Source of the DNA: Ophelia neglecta
Lineage: Eukaryota
Assembly: GCA_965285935.1 (NCBI GenBank)
Contig: OZ260667.1
Coordinates: 10,106,001-10,170,000, forward strand
Direction: 5' to 3'
Length of the DNA: 64,000 bases
Shown: positions 46,781 to 57,400 of the stretch, piece after piece
Layout: each line of letters starts with the position of its first letter
Numbering within the stretch: position 1 is the stretch's first letter
The notes under the pieces: model-generated
The model's database searches: none
What the model was told of the DNA's origin: nothing
Seen by the model: only the letters and a program-made list of their open reading frames with translations
Made by a program: the position numbers and the translations under genes

Positions 46781-47924
46781 AAAAAGTTAAAAATTGGTAT
46801 GAATAAAAGCTAACAAATGCAAGGGTACGAGTAAATAAAAGGGTTGAAAACCATGTTATTCACACGTTTCCCTTTATACAGCTTACAACTATCTGCAAGG
46901 CTCACATTAGTAGCTACAATGGAGACAGATAAAAAAAAAGTCGTGGTAAGATGAGAGACGCAAATTAATCAATAGCTCAGCTTTGGTGTCAAAACAACAT
47001 TTATATGCCTAAAAGCCTGATTGGATAAGTACTGGATCTTGTTTAGAACTTTTTTATTATTAAAGACCCTTTACAGTGCAGTGAGGATTGGTTTAACTAT
47101 ATAAAAATTAATGTAAAAGGACACTGTGGCATAAGGTTAATGGGAAGTGCTATGTAAAATGGGCATAACGTTTTACGACTGTGCCGATATACATATACAC
47201 ATAGCGGGCGTCATAGTGCAATGGCCCCTTGAATGCTTTCATGCTGGATGAGGGCGAATCAGTATATAAAAGAGATTGGGGGATTAAAACCTTAGTCAGA
47301 CTAAGTGATTGAGAATACCTTGAAAGCCTTTTGACTGCTCATTTTCTTTGTCATCGCGAAAAAATAAAGCCGGTATAACTGCTCTTTCATTGTTGTTCGG
47401 CTACTTAAAATATTCCACTTAATATGCACCTCGTTCCTTTCGAGGGATTGCTTTCTTAAAGCTTTACGAAGAGGAAACGAAACAGCCGACTTGTTTTAAA
47501 TGCCAATCACTTGGAGAATCAGCTTCATCTGGTTTAGCAATCATAGTTCGGCTGTGATCAAGCATACAGTTTGGTATCTGTTGAAGGCTAGACGTTCAGT
47601 GGACGTGAAATGTCTTATTGATCAACAACAACTGAATGGCACATCATGATAGTATGTATGTGATACAGAATAGCTCTTCACGCCCAGATTAGTAATCATA
47701 ACAAGCCTTGACCAATGAGTGAACAACGCCCAGATCCATAAGTTAATAACGCTCAGGTCAATTACTCTTATTCATGGACGATTAAATACTAGCAATGTGA
47801 TCTGGATTCTACCAAAGTAAAACAATGCAGGGTAAACAAGAGCATGCAAAGTAGACCTTTATTTGATTATTTGTGCCGCTTTCTTCTCTACTACCTGGGC
47901 CATAATAAAGACCAAAAACAATAA

Positions 47925-48280
47925 AATCGCCCCCTGGGCTGATAAACATACTGACCATACACCATCAACCCGACCCTTAGACTGATAAACAAACTGACCA
48001 TACACCATCAGCCCGACCCTTAGACTGATAAACAAACTGACCATACACCATCAGCCCGACCCTTAGACTGATAAACAAACTGACCATACACCATCAGGCC
48101 GACCCTTAGACTGATAAACAAACTGACCATACACCATCAAGTCCCCCCTTAGACTGATAAACAAACTGACCATACACCATGAAGTCGCCCCTGAGACTAA
48201 TTAGCATTCCGATTATTTACCATTAACTCGCCCCGAAAAATTATAAACATACCGACTATATACCATTAACACGCCCCTAT
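47925..48280. repeat. 43-bp minisatellite
   Basis: Unit GACTGATAAACAAACTGACCATACACCATCAGCCCGACCCTTA. Six well-conserved contiguous copies (47937-48195) plus about two decayed copies. Confidence 0.92.
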
Positions 48281-49869
48281 ATAATAGACATACCGAGCCA
48301 CAGTTTTTATTTTCTACCCTTCAACATTTTAGTCAACAGGATAAAAGTTGGGAGTACCTGTCACTAAACTAATGTATGTGTCCAAATCTGTAAGATTTAT
48401 AGAATTCAAACTAATGAATTATCTCTGAGCTAAAATTGAACTTAATTGTACAAACGTTTTTTTTTTAAAGGATGTTCAAAGAGCACCTTTTGCGTTATGC
48501 TGCATCATTTACTTAAAGAAGAATTACTTTCAATATATCAATCTAATCAGTTGATCTATCTGTCATGATCCCTTTTTTCTTTGTATTTCCATGTTTATTT
48601 TACCTTTTTGTATTATTTATTTGTTTTTAAATACAATAGCAATGTGATCTGGATCCTACCAAAGTAAAACAATGCAGGGTGAAAAAATAGCATGCAAAAT
48701 AAAACATAATTTGAACAATATATCTGTCATGTTTCCTCTTTTCTTTATATTTCCATGTTTATTTTACCTTTTCGTATTATTTATTTGGCAATGACATATC
48801 GTGTTAATACGGACGGGTTGTATATTCCACTTGGAATATGTTCCTTTTGGCTCAGTTTGAGTGACAGGTAACATATCTTTCTATTATTTAGCTGCTTGTT
48901 GTTTCTGTAATTTTGTTCTGTCTTATTGCAAACTCAAGGGTCAATAAACAAATTTGCCTTGAAATTTGCTTTGAAAATATTGAATTTAACAAAAGTACAA
49001 GCATCATATACTTAGGCCCACAACCCATGTATTCTTTCATCAGTTTTGAGTGGATAAAGAATGTCGTCGCTTTATCAGTAATATTAATCACTTTGACATT
49101 AAACCTGCTCAAGCTAATGGTTGTCAAGGTTTCCAATATGCTTTAGACACTCCGTGATCTTGTTACCTGCTTAGCTCATTTGTGACAGCTAAAAAGGAAC
49201 TCATCCAGTAGGAGGGCTTTTTGAATCGTGCGATGAAGAAGGATTTTTTTCTATAATACGTTACCGTGTTCTTTATTCACGATTTTGTCGTTATTAAGAC
49301 TTAGTGGTATCTGGAAATAGTTATGGACTTAAGGTTCTAGGAATATAAACTGAATTCATTCATTTAAACGAATTTCCCTTCCATTAGTACGTTCTTTGAC
49401 ACTGAACAGTTCTTTTATTTGTGCTAGTAGCCATTTATTTTTTCAATCGCGATATGTATAAATTATCGCTGATCATAAATAACCTTTTGCTACACAATTA
49501 CAGATCACTACTGCATTTACTCTGTTTTAAGCCGGGCACTTTTTTTAATTCCTCGCAGTTAAAAGCTTATTCCGAGAACAACTTGCACGGATGAAGCCTA
49601 CAAACTGCATGGGAGACATTGTGGCTTAGAAAAAGGCTTAATCCTGCCCGAAAGGTAGCCAGCTTGTGTGCGGTTTTTATACCCTGTATTATGTAACTAC
49701 CATATATACGCATATACGCATATAAAGGCAGAGGTTCTTGCGCGCAAGAAAATACCATATCGCCAAATGCATGCTAATTTCTTGCATGCCAAACCTTTCT
49801 ATGTGCAAATTTACTTTCCCTTGCTCGTAAAAGCTATTTACACATTTTAACTGTAAATGTTCACCTAGT

Positions 49870-51250
49870 CCACAGTATACAATGTGGCCCACTGCCATAC
49901 TTTTGTGTATAACGGGAGCCCCCTTTGATGGTTCTTTGTCTCGCTAGTTGATCCCATTATGACGAAAGCCCCTTTTGGGTTTTTTCTGCTAGTCATTATC
50001 ATTTTTATTATTTTGTATGAAAGGAGCCACTTTGATGAGGCTTTGTCTCGCCAGTTGATGCCATTATATTCCAATTTGAGGTGTAATGATGTTCTTGAAA
50101 TACACACATCCATATTCTATTTTGAAAGCAAAGCCGTATTTAGTCAGCTGTCGGTTTTTGAAGTTGGCTTTCTTTCTGTCTTTGCTCAGGGTGATTTCAG
50201 AAATATAGGCCAGTGAAATCTCCCCCTGGAGTCTTATTTATTTGATATAATACATATATAGTGCTTTGAGTCTCTCTTATTTGCGGAAATGTGCGTATTT
50301 GATGCATATAATAGACATTCGGAAATGTTCGGACTGGATTTTCTCTCTCGTCTCAGCATTGGTTGTACTTCCTGTAAGGCGGATCTCACTAAAAAGCCTC
50401 TTATAGTAGATTAATTCATCGCCCAAATCAAATCAGGCTTCGATATAACTTGGGTTGTGATAGTTGCAATAGTTAATATATTTCACTTAAGGAAATACGT
50501 TGTTTTGGTTCTAAGTATCGCTCATTTCTTGTACACTTACTTCAAAATATACTCCCCTTTGCCCTGCTGTGTCACTGCTCTGCTGAATGGACAATTGGTG
50601 CACTGTTTACTCTTTGAAGAAAAAGTACCATGGATTTTTTGCGTGCTTCAAGGCTAAGCAGGCCCATTTGGTTCCTTGTGTTACATAATAAAACTCGATT
50701 TACTCTTCCCCAGCCAATTTAAACGGTTGTTTGGCTGACGCCAGACATAGCACATAGATTACCAAATGTATAATTAGAACGAGTCTTTGTATGAATGATG
50801 GGAAAAGTGCGCATCCTGAAAAAGGAGGCTACACTGCAGAAAGGAAACATTTGCCTTCCTGTAAATCATTTTCATGGTTCTGGGAATTAGTCGAAGGGTC
50901 CCTTTTTCGGAAAGTGATGCTTTGCGAATGAGCAAAACCTGGACCCTTTTCGAAGTAAAAGAGGGTTCCATCTTCTGTTTACATTTTATATCATATTAAA
51001 AGGTGTTTCCTCGTCTCACTTAATACTTTCAGCATGTTCCCAATTAGTAAAAAAGAAAGAAGCACCCCCATTTTGTTGCTGTTGTGCAGCTACGGTTGGC
51101 TAGATTGGAGCATTCTGGGTATTATCATCATGTCTTGGCGGCCGTGTAGAAACTCCAAGGAATTAACCGTCTCCATGACCCCAACTCCAGTGTTATTCAG
51201 GTTCAGGAGGTTCCTTCAGTCATCTCTGTACATCACCATTATTTGTGAGT
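49870..51250 (-). mobile_element. Decayed RT remnants upstream of the young LINE
   Basis: PPRHDD-IPRMLQ (like APGxDGI..ML), VQVLLIRK..TLRLIP (like V.LIPK..YRPI) and GINWRDK (like RTE ILGIxWxDK), in plausible order. Weak. Confidence 0.28.
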
Positions 51251-51531
51251 GACATACTTGATAACAGAGAGAACAACGACTGGTGTGATGCGCACTCTCA
51301 ACTATATTTCCGTTTTATTTTTAACTTAATCATATCGTACAAATCGCCATACTATTTACCAAAACGTTGCGACGACTGTCCAAGGTTAATGTCGGAATTG
51401 CATTAGGACAAATAGTTTAATTAGGAACGAGGGCGTGCACGACATGAAGTATACACGTATGAATAACAGACGAAAGAAATATTAACAAGAACTGGGAACC
51501 GGGAACTGCCATTATTATCTCGATCCTGGCC

Positions 51532-54500
51532 ATGAATTTTTCCGTTTATTGGATGAATTCAATACAATTGCCAAACAAGCAAAAGGAATTAACTATCCCT
51601 GATGTCTCGGACCTGCTTTACTGGAATGGGACTAAAACACACAGCCTGACGATCTTGTACAGGTCAGTCGGTGCCGGCGGGCCCAAGTATGTTGCCAAAG
51701 GCACTGTAAGCAGTACTAGAAGAAAAGTTCTGTACTTAGCAGCCATACTACTTGCACATGACACAGAATTAAACCCTGGTCCTGGTAAGAGAAACTACAA
51801 ATACCCCTGTGGCTCTTGTGCCAGGCCAGTAAAAATAAATGACAAAGGTGTATGTTGTGACAATTCTTTATGTCAAACATGGTACCATATCAAATGCCAC
51901 AATATTGGTGATTCAACATATGAACATCTAGGTCATAGTAATGTCTCATGGTATTGCACCAATTGCGGGGCTACTAATTATAGCCCCACACCACCAAACC
52001 CAGGTGACATCTCCACACCAAACTCTTTCAACTTACTGAGCGACTATAGCTCGTCCCCTCTGCACGCGGGAGATATCTCCACACCAAGGTCTCTGAACTT
52101 GCTGAGTGATTTGCACTCACCACGTCACAATGAACTAGATGCACACTCAACCCCAATATCACCTGGCCCACCTGTTGCTTCTTCCTCTCCTATAACTTGG
52201 GGTAACAAAAAAGACCCTAATGTCAGATATACTAGCAAGACTATCAGACTTCTTAATATTAACTGTCAATCACTTAGGGACAAGAAAGCCGAATTCCAAC
52301 ATATTGTCGATGACTCTGACCCTGACATTATAGTAGCCACTGAGACATGGCTAAAAGAAAACATATCTGATGGTGAAATTGGCCAAACAAATAAATTTAG
52401 CACTGGTTACAAAATCTACAGGAAGGACAGAGCTGATGGCTATGGAGGTGTACTTATCGCAGTTAAATGTCACCTTACTAGCACTAGAGCATTGGAATTT
52501 GAAACTGAAGGGGAAATAGTCTGGGTAAAGGTTGATTTGTATGGCTCCAAAACACTTTATGTTTGTGGATGCTATAGACCCCATACAGGGGACATATCTG
52601 GACACGAGGCAATTATGAGGTCCATAAGTAGAGCACCTCAGTGCACTAACTCCCATATTTGGATTGCAGGTGACCTAAATTACCCAGGTCTTGACTGGCA
52701 GTCCAATACAGTTAAATCAGGCTGCAACTATGCAACCATACATCAAGAATTTCTTGACTTTCTGAGTGATAATAGCTTAGCCCAGTTAGTTAGAGAACCA
52801 ACTAGAGGACAAAATATACTAGATTTATTCATAACAAACAACCCTACTCTTGTAAATCAAGTATCTGTTGGACCTGGAGTAGCAGACCACAGCAAGGTCC
52901 TTGCTGAAATAAATGTTAAACCCATCACCCTGGAACAGGAACGAAGGGAAATATACCTTTACAACAAAACAAACTGGCAGCCCATGAGGGATGACCTACT
53001 AAATGCTCTTAATACTTTAGACACAGAAACTCTCACAATAGATCAGATATGGACAACACTAAAAAACAACATTGAGATATGTATCAAGAAATATGTACCA
53101 CACAAACTAGCTAGAAAGAAAAACAGTCTACCCTGGCTATCAGCAAATACCAGAAGAATCCCGAAAAAGAAGTATAAACTTCACAGTCGTAAGAAAAAGA
53201 GTGGCAAACCTGAACATATTACTCACTTCAAATCAGTCAGTGCCCTAGCCCAAAAAATGATCAGGCAGGACTACTGGCAATATGTCAACCAGCTGGTGTC
53301 TCCCGCAGAAGGAGAGACCAAACTGGTGAGCACAAAGAAATTTTGGACTTTCATTAAGCACTGTAAAAATGACACTACCGGTGTGGCACCATTAGAGGAT
53401 GAAACTGGTACAGTTCACTCCGATGGCGCAACCAGGCAAACATACTAAATAGGCAATTTAGTTCTGTATTCTCTAAACCTGCACCACTGAGCCTGAAGCA
53501 GAGCTGTTTGCGAAATACACCTGCACACCTAATTCCAACTAGCATGCAGTCCCCCCATCCTGACCTTATTGACTTCGACATAGGCCTGGAAGGGGTGCAT
53601 AAACTACTACAAAACCTGAGGCCACATAAGGCGGCGGGACCAGATGGACTCAGACCTCTGATCCTCCAACAACTGGGGAGTGTCATTGCTCCCACTCTCC
53701 AAATTATTTTCCAGAGATCTCCGAGTGAGGGTAAACTGCCTGAGGATTGGCGTCATGCTAATGTTGTTCCCATCTTTAAGAAAGGCCCTAAACATGCACC
53801 TGCTAATTACAGGCCTGTCTCTCTCACATGTATATGCAGCAAATTAATGGAGCATATTATCTCCAGCCAGGTTAGGAAACACCTAGACTCCGATAATATC
53901 TTATCTCCCTTTCAGCACGGATTCCGCTCTAGGAGATCCTGTGAAACCCAGCTTATCGAATTTGTCCAAGACCTACATACGACCTGTGAAAAAGGTCGAT
54001 ACACTGAAGGAATCATCATGGATTTCAGTAAGGCCTTTGATAAGGTCTCACACCACAAATTGCTATTTAAACTAAACTGGTATGGTATTAGAGGCCAGAC
54101 TCTTGATTGGATTGGTGACTTTCTGGCAGATAGGAAGCAGCGAGTAGCCCTGGACGGAATTTTCTCGGACACGTGTAGTGTCACTTCAGGCGTCCCACAG
54201 GGTTCGGTCCTTGGACCAATCTTGTTTCTAATATACTAATGACCTTCCTGACTGTGTATCATCCAATACCCGGCTATTTGCTGATGATACCATAATATAC
54301 AGAGAAATTAACACTGTCCAAGACACAATTACCCTACAAAGGGATCTGACTAAACTTGAAAACTGGTCAAACCTTTGGCAAATGGAATTCCACCCTAAAA
54401 AATGTGCTGTCCTTAAAATTGGCCGGAAAAGGACACAATTCAACTCCACTTACATACTTTACAATCAAGCCCTGGAACAAGTAGACACCGCTAAATACCT

Positions 54501-55083
54501 CGGCATTACCCTCTCCTCTGACCTCTCTTGGAACACACACATTAACAATATTTCTAACAAAGCCAACCAAACACTCGGATTTCTCAAACGGAACTTAAAA
54601 ATTCATTCTCCTGACATTAAAGCTAAAGCCTATATGGGTCTGGTTCGTCCAAAGATGGAGTACGCGGCAGCAGTGTGGGACCCCCATACAGCAAACAATA
54701 TATACAAACTTGAGCAGGTCCAGCGCAGGGCAGCCCGCTGGACACTCAACCGTTTCCACAACACCTCTAGCGTCACCTCCATGTTATGTCAACTGGAGTG
54801 GCCAACCTTACAACAACGTAGATACACAGCCAGACTCACCATGATGTACAAAATGGTGTACAGTACTGTAGGTGTCAACCCCTATCAATATTTACAACCT
54901 ATCTCTAGACCCACTAGATTCTCACATCCTCTAACTTTCCTTCAGCCACATTGTTCAACCACCGCTTATAGCATGTCCTTTTTCCCCAGGACAGCAATTC
55001 AGTGGAATGCGTTGCCCCAGAGCACAGTCCAGGCACCCTCTGTAGAGGCATTTAGGTGCCAGCTACTGGGGCTTCACAACTAA
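51532..55083 (+). pseudogene. LINE PHD-endonuclease-reverse transcriptase ORF, split by two frameshifts
   Basis: Track ORFs 51532-53448, 53508-54239 and 54382-55083 are consecutive parts of one ORF. There is a 1-nt loss at ~53434 (DGAT-K-ANILNRQFSSVF) and a 2-nt loss at ~54237 (FLIY-I-NDLPDCVSSNTRLFADDT). Confidence 0.88.
51718..51783 (+). other. 2A-like (StopGo) ribosomal-skipping peptide in the LINE ORF
   Basis: RRKVLYLAAILLAHDTELNPG|P: a hydrophobic helix followed by D-x-E-x-NPGP (codons 51760-51783), directly upstream of the PHD finger. Confidence 0.7.
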
Positions 55084-55299
55084 TATAAACACATCAGCAT
55101 AACCTGTACATATATATATATACGTTCTATTCTTCCGTCACTGTTCTATCGTCCTGACAAGGACTCTATACAGTTATGCACAATCTTTGGTTTTTGTTTT
55201 TTTTAGCATGCGCACCCTACGTGGAGCCCTCAACATTGAGGATCCGTAGTATTGGAAGAAAGAAAGAAAGGTTTGTACGCGTTCATGAATCCATAAGAA

Positions 55300-57400
55300 G
55301 CATTTATAAATTTCATAGTGTTCTGACCGGTCGCACAGTAGCTCGCAATGTCTGTGAAGTTCACGGTCAATATGTGACAAACAAACACAATGGCCAGTGA
55401 CCTAGGTTTCTCTTGCTGTATTGATGACCGCCACAAATTAGGTGAAGTTTATATATGGATTTAGTCAAATTAGTGTTGACAAACAAAATGGCTTGCCCGT
55501 GACTATGCAAGGGCAGGAGATATTCACCAGTGTTGATTGTAAAAGGGGTGAGGGGCAGAGTGTACTCGAGATTGATCCGGGGTAAGGTGACAGGGCGAAA
55601 GACCGAGCAGAATAAGAAAATCTCCGGACGGAATGGCAGACGACACTTGAGACTGAGGCCCGCGCGTCTTGACAAAACTAAGCGGCGTAATTTGCTGTGA
55701 ATCATATTAATTCACTGACATTACCATTATTTGTGAGCAACATACTCGATAACACAGGAAACAAATAACATATGTAAAATTACAGTTTTATTTTGAAGCT
55801 AATTATAACGTGCAAATCGGCCAGACGTAGGGAGTCCCTGCGCCACCCTTAGGGGTATGGAGTTACTCACCGTGTTTACGCTGAAAACCTGGGAATGTCC
55901 GAGGGAAGGGGGGGCGGGAGGGAGCAGTGATCCCTTTGAAAGACTTGGAGGACAGTTCGCAGATTCCTGTGTATTGCATCGGAGCGCCATGCTCCTTGCC
56001 TCATGATGGCATCAAGCCCAGATCCACCATTATATGCCAGCTAGAAACCGCCGTGTCCAAGAGATTGGAGATTTAAAAGGGTGGTGTCAAGACCGATGCT
56101 GAAAACTGCGCCGGCCAGCATGGCTCAGAGTGTGGGGTGGGTGACTAAGAGTCGGGGGCCTTACAAGTAGCAGGGGGTCTTATTCTGTCACCCAGGGAAT
56201 AGCCCGCTGCAATGCGAGAAGGTACTCAGTGGGCGGGAAGAGGCAGGGGAGGGTGACGTGTGTGAGTTGGCCGGCCATTGAATGGATTTCGTTCTCTTGT
56301 TTCTAAGACGAAATCCAGATAGGTCCTGATGAACCGTTATATCGCTCCACGTTTATAGGGGTATGAAATTGGAGACGGGAGTGAGGAGCTATGAGAAAGG
56401 CTCTAAGCATGCCGACGAACCAAGGGTAATAGCAGCCTGAAGAATGACCTCCTTGTTGGTAAGCACTTGATCAGAGTGTGAACGAGAACTTTAGTTCTAT
56501 TGGGCGTCTCACCGCTATGTCGACAGCTCGTGGTAATTGAGTTTTGGACGCTGCAGATTGGAATGCTAATGCTGAGATAGCGTTTCTTGTAGAGACTGTG
56601 GCATACCCAGACTTGGTGGACAGTTCGTTGTTAACCAACACCAGGTCTAGGTAGGGGTCATGTAGAGGGCAGTGGGGGACACATAGAAAACTGAGAAAGA
56701 TGAGCGTGGTGATTTTATATTTACGCCAGGTTCCCGGGCGAAGAAAGTGTCTCCTTCATGTGTTAGCTTGGTCTAGCGAGACCTCAAGGGAGTCACCTAA
56801 AACAAGGGTGATCAGAGTTAGAGGGGAGTAAGTATATGATGAGTGAGGGAGGTTTCTGTGGCCCTTAGCGAAGCTATCAGGCTATCGACTTTGTCTTTGA
56901 ATGCTGCTTTGAAGGAGCCTGCGTGATAACGGGTCTGCCAACATTTCAGCGCCTGCCTGCTGCTCGATTGTTACAGATATGTCAATTAAAGCACAGATAA
57001 ATGCTATGTTTCCGGCGCAATTAAATAGGAAGGGTGCTGAGAGGGCCTCCTGTGTGGCAATAAGACCCAATCGGGTCTATATTTCTTTGATTGCGACGGT
57101 TGCCGTGATTGTCCGAGAACGTGTTTTCAATTTCCTTCTTGGCAAGGTGCGATTGTTGTGTGGTTGTTGCCACATCTCATACACTTGCATTTCCTTTTGC
57201 CAATTATTCTTTGGATTACATAATTTAAGGGTAAGGAAGACCGAGCCTATTCGAGTGCTCGATAGACAGAGCAGAAAATGAAAAACTCCGGGTAGAGTTG
57301 CCGACACCTTGAGACTGACGCCCTCGTGTCGTGACAAATGTGAGTTTAGTAATGGGCTGTCCGGCATATTCATGCGCTGACACGACCATTCAGGCCAGGC
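55300..57400 (-). mobile_element. Decayed GC-richer retroelement relic (ORF1 zinc-knuckle and endonuclease-like remnants)
   Basis: CMRCGNNHTTIAPC CCHC-like knuckle at ~57140-57185. LVLGD (~56800) and YLDLVLV (~56645) resemble APE motifs. There is an internal ~80-nt duplication. Confidence 0.35.

Follow-up and report, generated by a model that had tools for sequence, protein, structure and literature searches.

The window, that is, the whole 64-kb stretch of Ophelia neglecta DNA that was analysed, contains a copy of a LINE retrotransposon at 51500..55270, which lies with all its parts on the forward strand. The copy belongs to a family referred to here as A, is truncated by 238 nt at its 5' end, and is about 99% identical to four other copies (98.6-99.3%). 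Its leader coding region (51500..51780) covers residues 3-95 of a leader that is 95 aa long in full-length elements. The leader ATG was lost at the 5' junction, and an internal in-frame ATG is present at 51532. Near its N-terminus the leader has a hydrophobic segment (AIIISILAMNFSVYW, 51508..51552) that resembles a signal peptide by Kyte-Doolittle hydropathy. Further downstream, 51718-51783 translates to RRKVLYLAAILLAHDTELNPGP, and the motif found there, RRKVLYLAAILLAHDTELNPG|P, is positioned just N-terminal of the PHD-APE-RT part of the LINE. A hydrophobic helix together with the 2A-like core makes up a 17-mer, YLAAILLAHDTELNPG|P, at 51733..51783. The core itself, D-T-E-L-N-P-G|P, occupies 51760-51783, and the predicted skip point falls between the Gly codon (51778-51780) and the Pro codon (51781-51783).

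The core is contained in a 661-codon open frame (51463-53448). Pfam places a PHD finger at residues 116-168 of this frame, starting 8 codons past the core (51808..51966; PF00628, E=2e-5), and an APE-type endonuclease at residues 265-479 (52255..52899; PF03372 and PF14529). The reverse transcriptase (53787..54513) is split over two shifted frames. It is followed by a C-terminal domain and stop codon (54514..55083) and a 3' UTR (55084..55270) that ends in a (GAAA)n tail at 55255-55270. Besides DTELNPGP, no other NPGP is encoded in the six frames of the 64-kb window. The original prediction was right about a 2A-like motif at the front of a LINE polyprotein, adjoining a PHD finger, and the position is a known one in APE-type LINEs.

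The prediction that this copy would give rise to a PHD-EN-RT protein did not hold. A private 1-nt deletion at approximately 53433 shifts the frame between the endonuclease and the reverse transcriptase, and a private 2-nt deletion near 54236 interrupts the reverse transcriptase. With the start ATG lost and both of these private deletions shifting the frame, the window copy is dead; the insertion is a recent one. It carries 17 private substitutions relative to the other family A copies. In the 5 copies of family A that were examined, the window copy included, there was no convincing target-site duplication.

Several repeats are found in and around the copy. The PHD-EN linker contains a 66-nt tandem duplication (51979-52109) that yields two GDISTP..NLLSD units 72% alike, whereas the linker of a sister family, B, has a single unit. 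The LINE is flanked by diverged copies (73-85%) of another repeat (51230-51346 and 55718-55819; 55646-55728 and 57308-57390), and an array of 43-bp tandem repeats occupies 47867-48296.

LINE families of the genome

A search of the 762-Mb genome to which the window belongs returned 7 matches to 51450-52050 and, with split copies counted in, at least 22 matches to the 3' end of family A. Two family A copies share a 5' end that lies 238 nt beyond the window's junction. The element they define is 4.01 kb long, with a single long reading frame preceded by a 5' UTR of 234 nt and a (GAAA)n sequence as its tail. No copy that is both full-length and unbroken was present among the 5 examined. Family B has an uninterrupted frame of 1168 aa behind a 247-nt 5' UTR; two of its copies likewise share their 5' end before the ATG. 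The leader up to the Gly comprises 95 residues in both families. ORF1 is absent in both, and their 5' regions contain only uORFs of at most 44 codons. This layout, backed by the 1168-aa ORF of family B, is that of the 2A-bearing APE-type LINEs described by Odon 2013 (PMC3708506), most of which lack ORF1. The LINE likely belongs to the CR1 clade: compared by eye, its reverse transcriptase resembles those of CR1Y_SP, CR1-1_BF, and CR1-3_NV from the data file of that paper, with ~52/90 residues identical to CR1Y_SP.

The 5' ends of family A (L008:6417) and family B (L050:1323) begin with GGTGCGCATGCG. This word resembles the palindromic NRF-1 site and may be a promoter word. A GCATGCGCACC-like word, reverse-complementary to it, lies ~55 nt before the 3' end (window 55206-55216). 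The idea that the 5' end pairs with the 3' UTR was rejected, as shuffled sequences paired equally well in 30/300 and 22/300 cases. The family A copy on G000:C8 (L009:4410-5889) carries a hAT-like, non-coding insertion of 1.47 kb that has terminal inverted repeats and is flanked by a target duplication of 8 bp. It is inserted directly 3' of the NPGP codons and separates the leader from the PHD finger.

The canonical pattern D(V/I)ExNPGP has 277 matches in the genome, 73 of which come from one duplicated minisatellite. Most of the first 30 matches, read by eye, stand before an APE-like endonuclease, and 2A-bearing LINEs are therefore common in this genome. The minisatellite has a 27-bp unit repeated ~185 times, the unit consisting of the 2A core codons (DIEVNPGPE-like). 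The array is frameshifted, starts from the 2A core in a LINE-type leader, and is present in two copies 13.5 kb apart (L087:1849-6901 and L088:5338 to L089:390; G000:C1, near 140.745 and 140.758 Mb). Another LINE family (L058/L059, L082-L086; G000:C1) has a duplicated 5' region: its two canonical 2A leaders are spaced by 281 bp and lie in different frames, and its endonuclease frame opens only from the second leader. At G000:C1:66499308 (L069), a LINE-type leader ends in canonical DIELNPG|P, but the long open frame behind it is, by eye, unlike an APE endonuclease. Finally, family D is represented by two near-identical copies (L053 and L054; G000:C9 and C12) with 1214-codon open frames, in which a signal-like leader and a GDIQVNPG|P core (E to Q) precede PHD-APE-RT.

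Conservation of the 17-residue peptide

The DTExNPGP-coding pattern has 7 matches in the genome compared with 0 for a reversed control and with 0.2 expected from base composition (about 2e-5 per window). All 7 sites are located in three sister LINE families, 3 in A, 3 in B, and 1 in C, and all 7 encode YLAAILLAHDTELNPGP. Between families A and B, 17/17 residues of the 17-mer are identical although 13/17 codons differ silently, and the A-C and B-C comparisons also give 17/17 identical residues. Elsewhere, A and B are only 31% identical in the leader upstream of the peptide, 68% in the PHD finger, 71% in the endonuclease, and 72% in the reverse transcriptase, and their silent sites are near saturation (pS 0.77-0.94). 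Between A and B, no identical stretch in the N-terminal half exceeds the 17-mer in length, and between A and C the 17-mer is the longest. Judged by these substitution patterns, the 17-mer is under purifying selection and its Thr has been fixed by selection. Conservation shows that the 17-mer has a function without telling which one.

Conservation across genomic copies had been proposed as a check, and the motif is kept in 3/3 family A copies that reach that far as well as in two sister families; a family without the motif, the outcome that would have refuted the prediction, was not what was seen. The Thr that had been taken for a variant of this copy is indeed present; a copy-specific mutation is ruled out for the Thr/His spelling, which is the same in all 7 sites of the three families. 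Likewise, the His described as a departure from the usual Gly is real, but it is a recognised alternative in the core (G/H)D(I/V)ExNPGP of Baral 2026 (bioRxiv 10.64898/2026.09.24.754024).

Measured against class A 2A peptides, the sequence has NPG|P with D at position 12 and E at position 14, His at position 11 where Gly or His is expected, and a hydrophobic, Leu-rich helix at -19..-10 (KVLYLAAILL, with 4 Leu and Ala-Ala at -14/-13). Position 13 is Thr in 7/7 genomic sites instead of the Val or Ile of the canonical and expanded motifs. With Thr at a position that is strictly V/I by definition, the peptide is filed, by its sequence, as a variant class A 2A-like peptide and not as a canonical member.

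The Thr core extends beyond this genome. A profile of the 2A and PHD region matched 6305 library proteins, and among the best 150, which were examined, 137 had the motif before CxxC (13 were dropped by the pattern used). In these 137, position 13 was Ile in 63, Val in 37, Thr in 25, and another residue in 12; DTExNPGP occurred in 24 and HDTExNPGP in 13, shares that are inflated because the profile query was itself HDTE and biased the sample. The key Glu was kept by 24/25 Thr variants versus 64/100 Val/Ile ones. Named members were present in 3/10 clusters looked up (Mytilus, Acropora, and Apostichopus), the Mytilus one with a Thr core. With a profile built from HDTE sequences, Thr13 was found in 1/81 Gly-led cores versus 24/56 others. 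Co-evolution of Thr13 with a non-Gly residue at position 11 was rejected: only 1 independent pair emerged from a tree of 139 rows and 86 columns in which 11/136 inner branches were starred, so that the association is indistinguishable from shared ancestry. With the N-terminus of family B as query, a word-index search of proteins gave 201 candidates, none of them significant. A literature search found no paper on the DTE variant together with retrotransposons, and DTE terms had no match in the Rao 2025 supplements.

The leader and its hydrophobic start

Full-length leaders open with an uncharged hydrophobic stretch whose h-region ends early, near residue 13, a signal-peptide-like feature that the original prediction had missed. 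The best 10-residue Kyte-Doolittle mean, compared with shuffles, was 2.58 in family A, 2.68 in B, and 2.47 in D (L053), with p values of 0.015-0.023. In A and B, the hydrophobic core lies within the first 25 residues at p of about 0.02 each. A fourth, PHD-less family scored 2.57, and two other leader types in the genome were without a hydrophobic start (1.34 and 1.24). The family A start gave p=0.019, and its other reading frames only 0.78 and 0.20. T-rich DNA was thus rejected as the cause of the hydrophobic start: the other frames are far less hydrophobic, and T accumulates at the second position of the codons.

The same tendency was observed in the homologues. Among the 137 motif-bearing proteins from the best 150, 78 have leaders of 70-125 aa with a Met start, as assigned by the gene caller. 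In 63/78 of these leaders, hydropathy reached at least 2.0 in residues 1-25, as opposed to 6/78 in residues 26-50, and 52/78 beat their own shuffles at p<0.05. By hydropathy, the leader N-terminus is a predicted export signal. The leaders of families A and B have two N-x-S/T sites at aligned positions. General glycosylation of the leaders was rejected, as sequons are not enriched in the 78 homologues (37 seen versus 43.5 expected). No paper on signal peptides in LINE leaders was found in a literature search that took in few of the subscription journals, and the subject is absent from the passages of Luke 2013 and Roulston 2016 (PMC4981915) that were available. The peptide upstream of LINE 2As is not known to have been given a function before, and a signal-like start is present in about four of five homologous leaders.

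Does the peptide cause ribosomal skipping?

Published mutagenesis and reporter data point in both directions. In saturation mutagenesis of P2A and F2A, V13 tolerated only Ile, G11 only Asn or Ile, and L6/L7 were intolerant of change (Baral 2026); the LINE peptide has Thr at position 13, His at 11, and Ala/Ile at 6/7. Thr at position 13 is also outside the over-represented viral variants of Li 2026 (PMC12846837). Several CR1 2As with near-canonical cores are barely active or inactive (Odon 2013). All these papers stress the context dependence of 2A. Highly active retroelement 2As are reported to number only 43/580.

Closer analogues come from a table of Snell and Matreyek 2026 (PMC13405545, media-7.csv), which has 19 rows with DTE, 10 of them with full DTExNPGP. 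The classes in this table were assigned by an SVM, at 86% on training samples, to data obtained by pooled sorting of human cells. With Leu counted by eye, DTExNPGP peptides with 4-5 Leu at -19..-10 were in skipping classes in 3/3 cases (rows 2948, 3600, and 3601; one HDTETNPGP and two GDTELNPGP), and of those with 1-3 Leu, 6/7 were non-skipping and 1/7 was classed as fall-off. The LINE 20-mer has 4 Leu but carries Ala-Ala at -14/-13, where all three skipping DTE peptides have Leu-Leu; table peptides with Ala-Ala at -15/-14 are both skipping and non-skipping. The Leu-rich helix may grip the nascent chain in the exit tunnel firmly enough for Thr to stand in for Val/Ile. On this analysis, the balance tips modestly toward partial ribosomal skipping at G|P in intact copies.

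A model for the 2A-like site and its alternatives

The best explanation, which is probably correct, is that a single-ORF LINE, likely from the CR1 clade, here carries a 2A-like site common to its whole family and unchanged in three sister families, and that in intact copies part of the ribosomes skip Gly-Pro and free the 95-aa leader from a PHD-endonuclease-RT protein starting with Pro. In an intact copy, the ribosome would start at the first strong ATG. The hydrophobic leader start would likely engage SRP and so bring the translating ribosome to the ER. Once codon 95 is reached, helix and core would together stall the peptidyl transferase centre, the stall mechanism of 2A given by Li 2026. 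A fraction of the ribosomes would then release the leader and restart at Pro, leaving PHD-EN-RT in the cytosol. Without a skip, the product would be carried along with the leader into or onto the ER and be mis-sorted and lost, which would limit enzyme output. Such a limit is in line with the idea of self-restraint in 2A-bearing elements (Odon 2013), and N-terminal signals can inhibit 2A skipping (de Felipe 2010).

How else could a selected 2A-like peptide act? Its main effect may be to lower output or to make ribosomes drop off, few of them restarting productively at Pro. Reports that 59% of tested ORF2p-associated 2A-like peptides cut protein abundance, and that at least 3 Leu lowered reporter output (the LINE peptide has 4), are in favour of such a throttle, as is the classification of one Leu-rich DTE peptide as 'skipping, reduced' (PMC13405545). 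However, the reduction was tied to Leu at -13/-14, where the LINE peptide has Ala, and 2/3 Leu-rich DTE peptides skip without reduction in the same table. Moreover, family A spread recently, as its 3'-end matches indicate, and the enzyme was therefore made. These results render a throttle unlikely.

Another reading does without skipping: the helix and core would serve as a membrane stop-transfer segment or a signal-peptidase site after the N-terminal signal, leaving the enzyme either anchored or cleaved by a protease. Precedent comes from a sea-urchin 2A-like peptide that acts as a signal sequence and, once its skipping is disabled, is cleaved inside the core (VET|NAG; PMC4981915). The inhibition of skipping by N-terminal signals seen by de Felipe 2010 fits as well, and the 2A helix equals the N-terminal segment in hydrophobicity (2.80 versus 2.58). 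Nonetheless, the hydrophobic run is only ~11 residues long, natural peptides close to this one skip in a cytosolic reporter (PMC13405545), and the exact D-x-E-x-N-P-G-P that has been held would presumably be unneeded for stop-transfer. We regard this reading as quite improbable. A decayed or chance look-alike without present function, which the non-canonical Thr and the dead window copy might suggest, is highly implausible given the zero amino-acid changes across three families with near-saturated silent sites and the excess of sites over expectation, all of them in LINE context.

A wider picture is offered only tentatively. A widespread group of marine-invertebrate LINEs may combine a signal peptide and a 2A in their single ORF, such that the mRNA is translated on the ER or nuclear envelope, the skip drops PHD-EN-RT with its own mRNA on the cytosolic face, and the unskipped product goes to the ER; H-D-T-E would be a distinct working 2A subclass that breaks the V/I rule. 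A signal-like leader, if real, would link an ORF1-less LINE to the ER.

Comparison with known systems

LINEs with 2A occur in the Rex1, Crack, L2, L2A, CR1, and Ingi clades (Odon 2013). Among the groups named in the original prediction, CR1 and L2 are therefore in place, and RTE-X was not encountered in the available parts of that paper. Single-ORF elements with a 2A-PHD-APE-RT order have been published, some of them active, and the PHD subtype includes CR1-1/17/26_BF, STR-24/25/34/35_SP, and Crack-17_BF (Odon 2013). The LINE families described here share with this subtype a single ORF without ORF1 and a short leader with a 2A-like site followed by PHD, APE, and RT. They differ from it in the core, which is H-D-T-E here and G-D-V/I-E there, in the position of G|P, 95 residues from the start here and about 40-80 there, and in the signal-like N-terminus, which the parts of Odon 2013 at hand do not mention.

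The DTExNPGP peptides of Snell and Matreyek 2026 (bioRxiv 10.64898/2026.06.17.732966) have the same combination of a Thr core and a Leu-rich helix, one of them with His; the skipping ones have Leu at -14/-13, unlike the Ala-Ala of the LINE peptide. Thr is not singled out as a class in the available text of that study (PMC13405545). Viral class A 2As (F2A and P2A) similarly place DxExNPG|P behind a LLLLSG-like hydrophobic helix, but the Thr at position 13 is outside their expanded motif (D/G/C/N)(V/I)ExNPGP, and the LINE peptide has Ala at position 6. A selected Thr core is thus a natural test of the Val/Ile rule at position 13. It also widens the motifs to be used in 2A searches, as V/I-restricted searches miss these families.

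The sea-urchin NLR 2A-like signals (Roulston 2016, PMC4981915) resemble what is proposed for the LINE leader in coupling ER targeting with a 2A skip, in their case giving cytosolic and secreted forms. In the sea-urchin proteins, which are encoded by host genes, the N-terminal 26-aa 2A doubles as the signal; the LINE, a retrotransposon, has its hydrophobic segment apart from the 2A helix and ~65 residues N-terminal of it. A 2A ahead of PHD-APE-RT is already known, and a Thr variant under strict selection adds to it.
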